From the NCBI GenBank assembly GCA_038061925.1, contig JBBTYD010000005.1, positions 13,477-77,476 of the forward strand: 64,000 nt of DNA. Reading direction: 5' to 3'. The stretch is from Patescibacteria group bacterium (GTDB lineage Bacteria > Patescibacteriota > Minisyncoccia > Phycocordibacterales > UBA9973). Shown piece by piece: positions 62,817-64,000 of the stretch. The notes under the pieces were generated by a model. That model did not search any database. It worked only from the letters and a program-made list of their open reading frames with translations, and had not been told where the DNA came from. Each line of letters begins with the position of its first letter. Positions within the stretch are counted from its first letter, which is position 1. Both the position numbers and the translations under genes were made by a program.

Positions 62817-62887
62817 GCGGTCATGGTTTAGTGGTAGAACACGACCTTGCCAAGGTTGAGACGAGAGTTCGATTCTCTCTGGCCGCA
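62817..62887 (+). tRNA. tRNA-Gly (anticodon GCC)
   Basis: GCGGUCA...CACGACCUUGCCAAGGUUGAG...GAGUUCGAUUCUCUCUGGCCGCA. The anticodon arm is identical in type to bacterial tRNA-Gly(GCC). Discriminator A. Confidence 0.85.
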
Positions 62888-62989
62888 CAAAGTAAGGCTA
62901 AGAAGGCAAACTGCTTTGCCTTCGGGAGAGAAACGAAAGACTTTTCGTTATCTACCGAAGGTAGATCGAAAAGCACCTGGCTATGTAGT

Positions 62990-63011
62990 AGCCGATTCTC
63001 TCTGGCCGCAC
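62990..63011 (+). repeat. 22-bp direct repeat of the tRNA-Gly(GCC) 3' end (second copy)
   Basis: cgattctctctggccgcacaaa occurs at 62866-62887 (inside the tRNA) and again at 62990-63011. The 102-bp spacer contains three short hairpins. Confidence 0.7.
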
Positions 63012-63019
63012 AAAAAATA

Positions 63020-64000
63020 GTGAACTCAATAAATAAAAATTTAAGTAAGGATTTAACATCAAAAATACCAAAGGAAGTTTCACATGTAACAACTACGCTT
63101 GAACAAGCTGGTTTTGAAGCATACTTAGTTGGTGGATGTGTTCGAGATCTCTTGATGTCACAGATCCTGAATCCAATCGAAGGAGATAAAGAACCAAAAG
63201 ATTGGGATATTACGACAAATGCTAAGCCGGAACAAATTATCGGTCTTTTTGAGAAGACTATTTATAAAAATAACTTTGGAACTGTCGGAGTCTGTGTTTC
63301 TTCCTTCAACCATACTAAAGATGTTCCATGTGAAACATTTACTGATAATGTTATTCGTGAAACACCAAAATATGAAATTATTGAGGTTACACCATATAGA
63401 ATTGATGTAAAATATAGCGATTTTAGACATCCGGATGAAGTTAAATTTAGTAATAAACTTGAAGATGACCTTAAAAGACGAGATTTTACAATAAATGCTA
63501 TGGCCTATGGAAAAGGACATCTAGTGGATGTCTTTGATGGTCTAAAGGACATAAAGGACAAGACATTAAGAGCGGTTGGAAAGCCAAATGACCGTTTTCA
63601 GGAAGATGCCCTTCGAATGTTGCGCGCTGTGCGTTTATCTTGCCAATTAGATTTTTCTGTGTCATATGAAACAACCGAAAGTATTTTTAAAAATGCGGAT
63701 TTAATAAAAAAAATATCACCCGAACGCATACATGATGAATTTGTAAAAATAATTATGTCGAAAAATCCGAGCAGTGGAATTGTAATGTTGTATAAATTTA
63801 ATTTGTTAAAAAATATAATTCCGGAACTCGAGGCAGGGATAGGCTGTGAACAATTAGGGGAACATATTTACGATGTCTGGGAGCATTTGCTTCATGCCTT
63901 GCAACATGCGGCAAACAAGAATTGGTCTTTAGAAATAAGGCTTGCAGCGCTTTTTCACGATATTGGGAAACCGAAAACAAGGAGATTGGCAGAACTACCG
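63020..64000 (+). CDS. cca: CCA-adding tRNA nucleotidyltransferase with C-terminal HD domain, 3'-truncated by the window end
   Basis: LVGGCVRDLLM...DWDITT (polymerase-beta head), RDFTINAMAY, RAVRLSCQLDF and the HD motif LAALFHDIGKP. The frame is open to the window end. The putative start is GTG at 63020, as no in-frame ATG precedes the GG motif. The frame runs through the tRNA repeat copy. Confidence 0.75.
   Translation, partial: MNSINKNLSKDLTSKIPKEVSHVTTTLEQAGFEAYLVGGCVRDLLMSQILNPIEGDKEPKDWDITTNAKPEQIIGLFEKTIYKNNFGTVGVCVSSFNHTKDVPCETFTDNVIRETPKYEIIEVTPYRIDVKYSDFRHPDEVKFSNKLEDDLKRRDFTINAMAYGKGHLVDVFDGLKDIKDKTLRAVGKPNDRFQEDALRMLRAVRLSCQLDFSVSYETTESIFKNADLIKKISPERIHDEFVKIIMSKNPSSGIVMLYKFNLLKNIIPELEAGIGCEQLGEHIYDVWEHLLHALQHAANKNWSLEIRLAALFHDIGKPKTRRLAELP

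Follow-up and report, generated by a model that had tools for sequence, protein, structure and literature searches.

A conserved, structured, tRNA-linked element directly 3′ of tRNA genes in Paceibacteria

In a genome of the Patescibacteria group, the 3′ end of a tRNA-Gly(GCC) gene is encoded twice, the second time directly in front of cca, the gene for the CCA-adding enzyme. The duplication lies near the end of a 64,000-nucleotide (nt) stretch of contig JBBTYD010000005.1 (GenBank assembly GCA_038061925.1), which was analyzed as a whole and is called the window below. What does such a duplication represent? A direct repeat of this extent, starting in the T-loop and stopping shortly beyond the tRNA 3′ end, is classically the identity block of tRNA attachment (att) sites of the T-loop type, and an earlier note on this DNA had taken the repeats and the short spacer between them for the scar of an excised or decayed element, or for a miniature element. 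Our comparative analysis leads to another answer. The spacer and the second repeat belong to a previously undescribed family of elements that is located directly 3′ of tRNA genes in Paceibacteria (Patescibacteria), and the window copy is probably a new tRNA-linked, co-transcribed structured RNA element of ~120 nt that keeps both the tRNA and the junction between tRNA end and cca intact.

An insertion at the junction of tRNA-Gly(GCC) and cca

The repeat, CGATTCTCTCTGGCCGCACAAA, is 22 nt long and has exactly two perfect copies in the window (62870-62891 and 62993-63014), with a start-to-start distance of 123 nt and 101 nt in between. In 100 shuffles of the window, there were 0.00 chance matches to it when up to 3 mismatches were tolerated. 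The duplication is thus exact and non-random, as first noticed, although the coordinates initially given for it (62866-62887 and 62990-63011) were too low by 3-4 nt and the spacer length of 102 bp was off by 1 nt. The features of the junction are as follows:

62817-62887, + strand: intact tRNA-Gly(GCC) gene (Rfam tRNA model, 68.8 bits; also called by ARAGORN), with discriminator A at 62887 and CCA not encoded
62870-62891, + strand: repeat copy 1, covering T-loop C56, the T-stem 3′ strand, the acceptor 3′ strand, and the discriminator followed by CAAA
62892-63010, + strand: the element, matching covariance model R1 over the full length (119.5 bits, E = 4e-24; model described below) and present as a sole copy in the window
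62993-63014, + strand: repeat copy 2, forming the element tail, with C56-G57 in hairpin P4 and 62996-63003 in helix P2 (see below)
63020-64000, + strand, continuing past the window end: cca, starting with GTG 9 nt after the tail discriminator
62768-62795, + strand: promoter-like site TTGCAA-16-TATAAT, a consensus scan match only, 21 nt upstream of tRNA-Gly

For the ancestral state of this junction, we fetched 80 related genomic loci (loci carry L numbers below), 74 of which were informative. In 64 of these 74, cca adjoins a tRNA on the same strand (Arg-TCG or Gly-GCC) and starts between -17 and +18 nt from the tRNA 3′ end. Comparison with relatives, as the earlier note had proposed, indeed uncovered empty sites: in 26 related Paceibacteria loci, an uninterrupted tRNA-Gly(GCC) ends within a few nt of the cca start. 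The junction of L048, which is representative of these 26, reads ...TCTCTGGCCGCA CAAAAATAGTGGACTCAATAA, and the window junction at copy 2 reads ...TCTCTGGCCGCA CAAAAAATAGTGAACTCAATAA, with the same upstream letters (...GGCCGCA) as in L048. Copy 2 followed by CAAAAAATA-GTG therefore has the same layout as the empty junction of the relatives. Because the copy 2 junction matches the empty sites, we interpret the window as carrying a 123-bp insertion in a conserved tRNA|cca dicistron; relative to the ancestral tRNA-Gly(GCC)|cca junction, this insertion is bounded by the duplicated 3′ part of the tRNA.

The insertion is not an assembly artefact, since positions 60000-64000, element included, are 100% identical in four independent groundwater assemblies. 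No strain-level empty allele was found among the contigs retrieved via the neighboring YraN gene, all of which carry the element. One public contig from a metagenome-assembled genome (MAG) of the same population (L177, NCBI CAYIWK010000015.1) ends inside tRNA-Gly, at about window position 62843 and ~25 nt ahead of repeat copy 1; the repeat may break short-read assemblies.

The cca reading frame is open through copy 2, with GTG at 63020-63022 as its first canonical start, which confirms the initial description. In the NCBI database, a 549-amino-acid (aa) protein from a Patescibacteria MAG (P0001) is 100% identical to the window cca fragment and begins with MNSINKN at this GTG, while its relatives in Paceibacterota or Nomurabacteria show 60-79% identity. 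The idea that the duplication had remodeled the cca 5′ end and promoter did not hold, since empty sites have the same GTG, N-terminus and tRNA-end context. Judged from this comparison, both the GTG start and the N-terminus of cca are ancestral. In the relatives, where cca lies right behind the tRNA, it likewise has no promoter of its own; in the window, the consensus scan found no promoter-like site between tRNA and cca. In the 64 tRNA-abutting loci (among L001-L080), the cca start codon, often GTG, shows no visible Shine-Dalgarno sequence; in most of L001-L080 it lies around position 3000, equivalent to 63011-63022 in the window. A cca start near the tRNA 3′ end without a Shine-Dalgarno sequence implies a tRNA-cca co-transcript and, after tRNA 3′ processing, a near-leaderless cca mRNA.

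This compact arrangement also affects gene calls. Many cca calls in the relatives open with MVEHVLAKDETGVRFSLAA..., which is translated tRNA-Gly(GCC), and false N-terminal extensions include, besides this one, MRREFDSLWPH... and VGSIPAGRT... (P0004, P0068, P0088, P0098-P0100, P0117 and others; L173-L176). For the organism studied here, the European Nucleotide Archive lists a cca product of 612 aa that runs through the element, compared with 549 aa from the GTG. This longer call is an artefact that arises because the frame is open through the element.

A family of elements with a covarying fold

Ten of the relatives contain an intervening sequence between tRNA and cca, and in three of them (L057, L076, and L080) this sequence is homologous to the window spacer; two of these three cca-side copies stand behind tRNA-Arg. 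BLAST further revealed spacer-like sequence at many other places in the loci, each time just 3′ of a tRNA. A second copy of the tRNA's own last 16 nt within 450 nt was found for 16 of 268 tRNAs, and all 16 carry the element. The covariance model R1, built on a MAFFT alignment of 20 copies, gave 27 further matches in the 80 cca loci. An exact 20-nt core pattern identified 92 metagenome stretches, 80 of which were returned as loci, and these contain another 91 R1 matches. The search for the spacer elsewhere, also suggested by the earlier note, thus found a single copy in the window itself, and about 115 homologues in 160 related loci. A full-text literature search returned no description of such a tRNA-trailing element, only analogues.

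Removal of identical copies left 89 distinct elements. A same-strand tRNA lies upstream of 84, in 62 cases no more than 10 nt from the model start, and 49 of the 89 share an exact run of at least 17 nt with the 3′ end of their tRNA. This shared run is about 17-25 nt long; most copies have it starting at C56, and it stops 0-5 nt beyond the discriminator. The hosts comprise at least 16 tRNA species, including tRNAs for Pro (TGG, CGG, and GGG), Gly (TCC, GCC, and CCC), Arg (TCG), Leu (TAA, TAG, and CAA), Lys (CTT), His, Cys, Phe, Tyr, and Ala. On the downstream side, 85 copies are followed by another tRNA within 60 nt (15 copies), the start of an open reading frame (ORF) within 30 nt (13) or at 31-200 nt (7), a contig end (11), or other sequence (39). 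Only 4 of about 100 copies precede cca, namely those of the window, L057, L076, and L080.

Within the cca loci, the element occupies the tRNAs patchily (Gly-GCC, 3 of 72; Gly-TCC, 8 of 55; Arg-TCG, 6 of 73; Pro-TGG, 8 of 62), and at the same tRNA it is missing from most of the closest relatives by cca. Core-column identity is 0.61 between copies at different tRNAs of one locus and 0.74-0.77 between different genomes, the latter value being inflated by the selection of the metagenome loci through an exact core match. Copies at different tRNAs of a locus thus do not resemble each other more closely than those of separate genomes, and nothing points to recent bursts inside a genome. The 5′ third of the window copy is closest to the Gly-GCC copy of L057 (94%), which does not adjoin cca there, and the sequence comparison suggests lineages specific to tRNA type. 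Overall, the patchy pattern would fit either an accessory RNA that is easily lost through recombination between the flanking repeats or a rare mover between cognate tRNA genes.

The conserved fold of the window copy consists of the following parts:

62892-62901, + strand: 5′ segment GTAAGGCTAA, an imperfect copy of the tRNA acceptor 5′ strand; its last A is nearly invariant in the family
62902-62923, + strand: hairpin P1, GAAGGCAAA-CTGC-TTTGCCTTC; 9 of 9 pairs compensatory, 99.3% paired
62925-62932, + strand: 5′ strand of P2, GGAGAGAA, T-stem-5′-like, pairing with 62996-63003 in copy 2
62933-62939, + strand: junction J2/3, ACGAAAG, with GAAAG invariant or nearly so in 83 distinct sequences
62940-62974, + strand: long hairpin P3, ACTTTTCG...CGAAAAGC, with a variable distal stem (TCTACC-GAA-GGTAGA)
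62975-62977, + strand: junction J3/4, ACC, invariant in the family
62978-62994, + strand: hairpin P4, TGGCTAT-GTA-GTAGCCG, closed over an invariant GUA loop and ending with C56 and G57 of copy 2
62995, + strand: A58, unpaired, invariant or nearly so
63003-63009, + strand: acceptor 3′ strand of the tail, followed by discriminator A at 63010

Comparative evidence strongly supports this arrangement of four helices around conserved junction nucleotides, kept by compensatory changes. RNAalifold, applied to an independent MAFFT alignment, predicted 29 pairs, 21 of them compensatory. In an 85-sequence alignment (83 distinct rows) that was fitted to R1, which inflates pair counts in a way that the MAFFT alignment does not, standard pairs fill 97.1% of the cells, compared with 35-54% when the partners are slid by 1-3 columns, and 22 of the 29 pairs show double changes in the distinct rows. 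The covariation score is 0.445 versus at most 0.085 with slid partners, and the observed values were reached in 0 of 500 shuffles. P2, to which the tail contributes tRNA nucleotides 59-65, is 88.7% paired, with 4 of 5 pairs compensatory and six pair types that track the T-stem of the host tRNA; mutual information lengthens it to T-loop nucleotides 59/60. A search for tertiary or pseudoknot covariation by the same measure returned helix extensions only. G.U pairs are confined to the tRNA-sense strand, which argues for a constraint on RNA of that polarity.

The 5′ segment can pair with 63003-63009, leaving an AA bulge or mismatches. Across the family, this acceptor-like helix is 60% paired, as opposed to 27-44% in slid controls; it is missing in Arg-TCG-type copies, while copies of the Gly, Pro, and Leu types place the acceptor 3′ strand opposite an imperfect acceptor-5′-like strand. 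Taken alone, the window copy folds at -47.5 kcal/mol (z = -5.55), and the adjacent tandem copies in L099 differ by a compensatory change from U-A to C-G in P1. Two of the three hairpins originally noticed in the spacer belong to this fold, ggcaaactgctttgcc being P1 and ctaccgaaggtag the tip of P3, whereas gaaagacttttc forms no hairpin in it: its CUUUUCG pairs with CGAAAAG 20 nt downstream. P4 (62978-62994) and the helix between 62925-62932 and repeat copy 2 were absent from that initial list. A simple scan flags P4 as terminator-like; its T-rich tail is paired in P2.

Several loci show variant arrangements. Tandem arrays are found in L099 (13578-14081), where two copies follow tRNA-Pro and one more stands behind the next tRNA, and two copies each occur in L117 (4267-4514) and L093 (1-170). 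One copy in L025 (1270-1397) carries a nested extra insertion of ~75 nt in the P4 region. In one clade (L069:1595-1640, L076:1665-1700 on the - strand, and the Gly-TCC/Pro copies of L080 and L072), tRNA and element are separated by a perfect inverted repeat of ~25 bp, which consists of the tRNA acceptor 3′ strand plus trailer and the reverse complement and is terminator-like with a U-run; the element of this clade begins with a full acceptor 5′ strand (GTGCGGGATAG).

A second structured element, unrelated to the one described above and designated family A, was observed directly 3′ of tRNA-Arg(TCG) (GTGCGGGGCAC ... GAGCCAGGGTCGTGCAA ... CCTGACCACA). Its members are located at L004:2893-2980, L025:2442-2528, L035:1076-1163, L001:395-506, L069:2829-2965, L043:858-969 (-), and L027:2638-2726 (-), in five loci between tRNA-Arg(TCG) and cca. 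For family A, RNAalifold predicts 29 pairs, of which 9 are compensatory; Rfam contains no match to it, and its sequence includes no duplicate of the tRNA 3′ end.

Proposed role and competing explanations

How could a tRNA gene and its downstream gene accommodate such an insertion? We propose that transcription would begin at the promoter-like site ahead of the tRNA and continue through the element, yielding a tRNA-element-cca co-transcript. With the duplicate tRNA 3′ part folded into the element, it would not compete with the tRNA's own 3′ half, and the fold would rebuild a helix resembling stacked acceptor stem and T-stem, with the discriminator at its end. An RNase Z-type enzyme could then cut after A62887 and A63010, possibly with RNase P acting at the 5′ side of the element. 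The products would be the tRNA, the RNA of the element, and a cca mRNA whose 9-nt leader equals that of relatives without the element. Gain and loss could proceed via the tRNA-derived direct repeats, for instance by homologous exchange with cognate tRNA genes or by repeat-mediated deletion. The invariant three-way junction suggests a core that is protein-binding or catalytic.

Several observations weigh against this account, in addition to the alignment bias mentioned above. Co-transcription, RNase Z/P cleavage, and an insulating role are inferred. Arg-TCG-type copies keep the acceptor 3′ strand of the tail yet have no acceptor-like helix, so the tRNA-like end is not a universal core of the element. 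P2 is longer than a T-stem and a three-way junction takes the place of the T-loop, a geometry that may not suit enzymes measuring 12 bp. Where the tail has drifted (12 copies), the internal strand matches the tRNA's copy in 4.0 of 5 pairs versus 3.4 of 5 for the element's own tail; since it fits the tRNA at least as well, the selected partner could be the tRNA itself. Moreover, an alternative global fold, in which copy 2 takes over the pairing with the tRNA 5′ half and copy 1 is base-paired to the element, is predicted to be slightly more stable (-75.6 versus -72.0 kcal/mol). Lastly, occupancy is very patchy, which is as compatible with a selfish element as with an accessory function.

The explanation offered initially, in which a prophage or genomic island was integrated into tRNA-Gly by a tyrosine integrase and then decayed or was internally deleted, leaving an attL/attR scar, agrees with the type of repeat, which is that of T-loop-type att sites, and with the empty sites in relatives; tRNA fragments left by integration have been reviewed (PMC9897764). 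However, the 101-nt spacer is homologous to about 115 copies behind at least 16 tRNA species, and the covarying fold incorporates the repeat, whereas independent decay could not converge on one structure. The earlier note was right that no integrase lies between the repeats, which enclose only 101 nt, and a Pfam search of 10 ORFs in the 7.5 kb upstream of the insertion found no recombinase. Up to 14 kb around each copy in 80 loci, the neighbors that recur (YraN, cca, a ZIP transporter, LepA, and an M23 peptidase) reflect tRNA-cluster synteny and include no integrase, transposase, or reverse transcriptase. Among 2.9 M viral contigs, there were 0 matches to the exact core, and distant blastn searches of phage and plasmid collections gave none. 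Given this homologous, covarying content and the lack of an integrase, foreign cargo, and phage or plasmid similarity, we reject the scar, whose probability we consider very small. The miniature element, the other option raised at the outset, comes nearest to our findings, in that there is a 123-bp insertion with known empty sites, but the terminal inverted repeats and the target duplication of short, fixed length that typify miniature inverted-repeat transposable elements (MITEs) are missing.

A related and more serious contender, although we still regard it as unlikely, is a non-autonomous mobile element that is moved in trans by a recombinase or nuclease and homes to the segment from T-loop to 3′ end of a cognate tRNA; its internal complementary strands would serve as target guide, and the duplicated tRNA part would be a target duplication or replacement. 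Insertion is precise, empty sites are known, the duplication always runs from C56 to 0-5 nt past the discriminator, and occupancy is very patchy, with the nearest relatives mostly empty. The sequence is nevertheless highly conserved: the Gly-GCC copies of the window and L057 are 94-97% identical over two 33-nt blocks, while the L057 cca fragment is only 68% identical to that of the window. Both the tandem arrays (L099 and L117) and the internal strands that track the tRNA rather than a drifted tail are in line with mobility. Conversely, transposases, integrases, and reverse transcriptases are absent from the recurrent neighbors and from the window flank; this covers short flanks of each genome, and a trans-acting gene may lie elsewhere. 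The identity values given above (0.61 within a locus, 0.74-0.77 between genomes) speak against recent bursts, copies were found neither away from tRNAs nor in viral, phage, or plasmid collections, and a guide strand would be hidden by its pairing in cis with the tail. A bolder reading holds that the element is a new kind of guide-bearing, protein-less mobile RNA/DNA module. One particular tRNA would have its T-loop/T-stem and acceptor 3′ strands complemented by the two internal strands, which would steer the module to the 3′ part of this tRNA's gene or transcript. We give this reading little credence; if true, insertion would rebuild the 3′ end of the gene, and the module could spread from genome to genome through the most conserved genes with host or trans-acting enzymes only.

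The element might instead be a small catalytic RNA, such as a self-cleaving ribozyme, whose three-way-junction core cuts the co-transcript at or near the boundary between tRNA and element or between element and downstream sequence. Its stems vary and covary, whereas the unpaired nucleotides between them (GAAAG, ACC, the GUA loop, and A58) do not change, a conservation pattern known from small ribozymes; the size of about 105-125 nt, the tandem copies, and the patchy distribution also speak for this reading. Against this, Rfam 15 contains no match to the window element, ribozymes included, even at E up to 10, and nine other copy-bearing loci matched tRNAs only (E up to 0.5). A cleavage site cannot be derived from the sequence, no tertiary covariation extends beyond the helices, and a protein-binding RNA would show the same pattern; we therefore consider a ribozyme improbable. 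CCA-adding enzymes recognize minihelices of acceptor stem and T-arm, and the window element, with its tRNA-like 3′ part, lies directly upstream of cca, so that a cca-specific regulatory leader that mimics a tRNA 3′ end in autoregulation of the enzyme also comes to mind. The distribution rules this out almost entirely: only 4 of about 100 copies lie in front of cca, the others precede tRNAs, unrelated ORFs, or nothing, and cca has no element in most relatives.

Should the tRNA-linked, co-transcribed RNA be confirmed, Patescibacteria would carry a widespread, uncatalogued RNA element that is physically and evolutionarily coupled to individual tRNAs, and four segments would co-vary, namely the two strands of the tRNA T-stem, the internal strand of the element, and its tail. 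It would provide a concrete system for the processing of tRNA operons and of near-leaderless genes such as cca in reduced genomes, as well as a model for harmless non-coding insertion in or next to an essential gene, with the invariant three-way junction as a candidate core. In annotation, the element gives rise to false att site calls and spurious cca extensions (612 versus 549 aa), and it may break assemblies near tRNAs.

Two further observations concern the surroundings. The 7.5 kb upstream encode YraN, Sua5, MurB, FKBP, SIMPL, ParE, NusG, L11, and a Vut_1 transporter; the ParE-family toxin gene (57264-57539, - strand; PF05016, E = 1.1e-09) sits among the housekeeping genes for NusG, L11, SIMPL, and FKBP. 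In addition, a palindromic motif, ATGTTTCAnnTGAAAC (of the GTTTCACGTGAAAC type), is present at 62139-62154, 62254-62269, 62401-62416, 63075-63090, and 63321-63336. These palindromes are intergenic upstream of the tRNA cluster, lie within cca, and are found near the cca start of relatives (just upstream in L069 and L076); the motif may be an operator or protein-binding site.

Comparison with known systems

The element shares several traits with tRNA att duplications, including a repeat that starts in the T-loop, an intact tRNA on one side, a displaced fragment on the other, and empty sites. Unlike these, it has just 101 nt between the repeats, carries neither integrase nor cargo, and has about 115 homologues. 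Moreover, what would be the displaced fragment is base-paired in a conserved fold whose internal strands covary with it.

Some non-tRNA sequences located next to other genes form structures resembling acceptor stem plus T-arm, from which the enzymes that process tRNA ends can define RNA ends. Such tRNA-like processing signals include the tRNA-like ends of mascRNA/MEN-beta and, nearest to the element in function, the t-elements of plant mitochondria (PMC1920247). Like both, the element recreates a tRNA-end boundary, here 9 nt before the cca start. It differs from them in that its tail is an exact copy of the neighboring tRNA rather than a loose mimic, that a three-way junction and two extra hairpins (P3 and P4) replace the T-loop, and that its acceptor-like stem is imperfect or, in the Arg type, absent; in addition, the element is tied to an upstream tRNA and not to mRNA ends, and its processing is inferred. 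The Rfam tRNA model gave no match to the element.

Similar to repeats of the MITE, REP, and RPE types, the element is short, non-coding, structured, multi-copy, and patchy, and leaves neighboring genes undamaged. In contrast to these repeats, its target is strictly the tRNA 3′ end, with a tRNA-derived repeat of 18-25 nt instead of a short target duplication, and terminal inverted repeats are absent except for the imperfect, tRNA-derived acceptor complement. It also differs from them by its tRNA-type-specific lineages and by G.U pairs on one strand, which point to an RNA-level constraint.

Finally, as in split, permuted, or intron-bearing tRNA genes, the 3′ part of the tRNA is encoded apart, here a second time, and complementary sequences could join the pieces; the alternative fold described above resembles a tRNA with a 123-nt insertion in the T-loop. 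Unlike archaeal split tRNAs and the permuted tRNAs of Cyanidioschyzon, however, the upstream tRNA is complete and needs neither splicing nor joining, and the host is a bacterium; a bulge-helix-bulge motif was not seen, although no search aimed at it was made.

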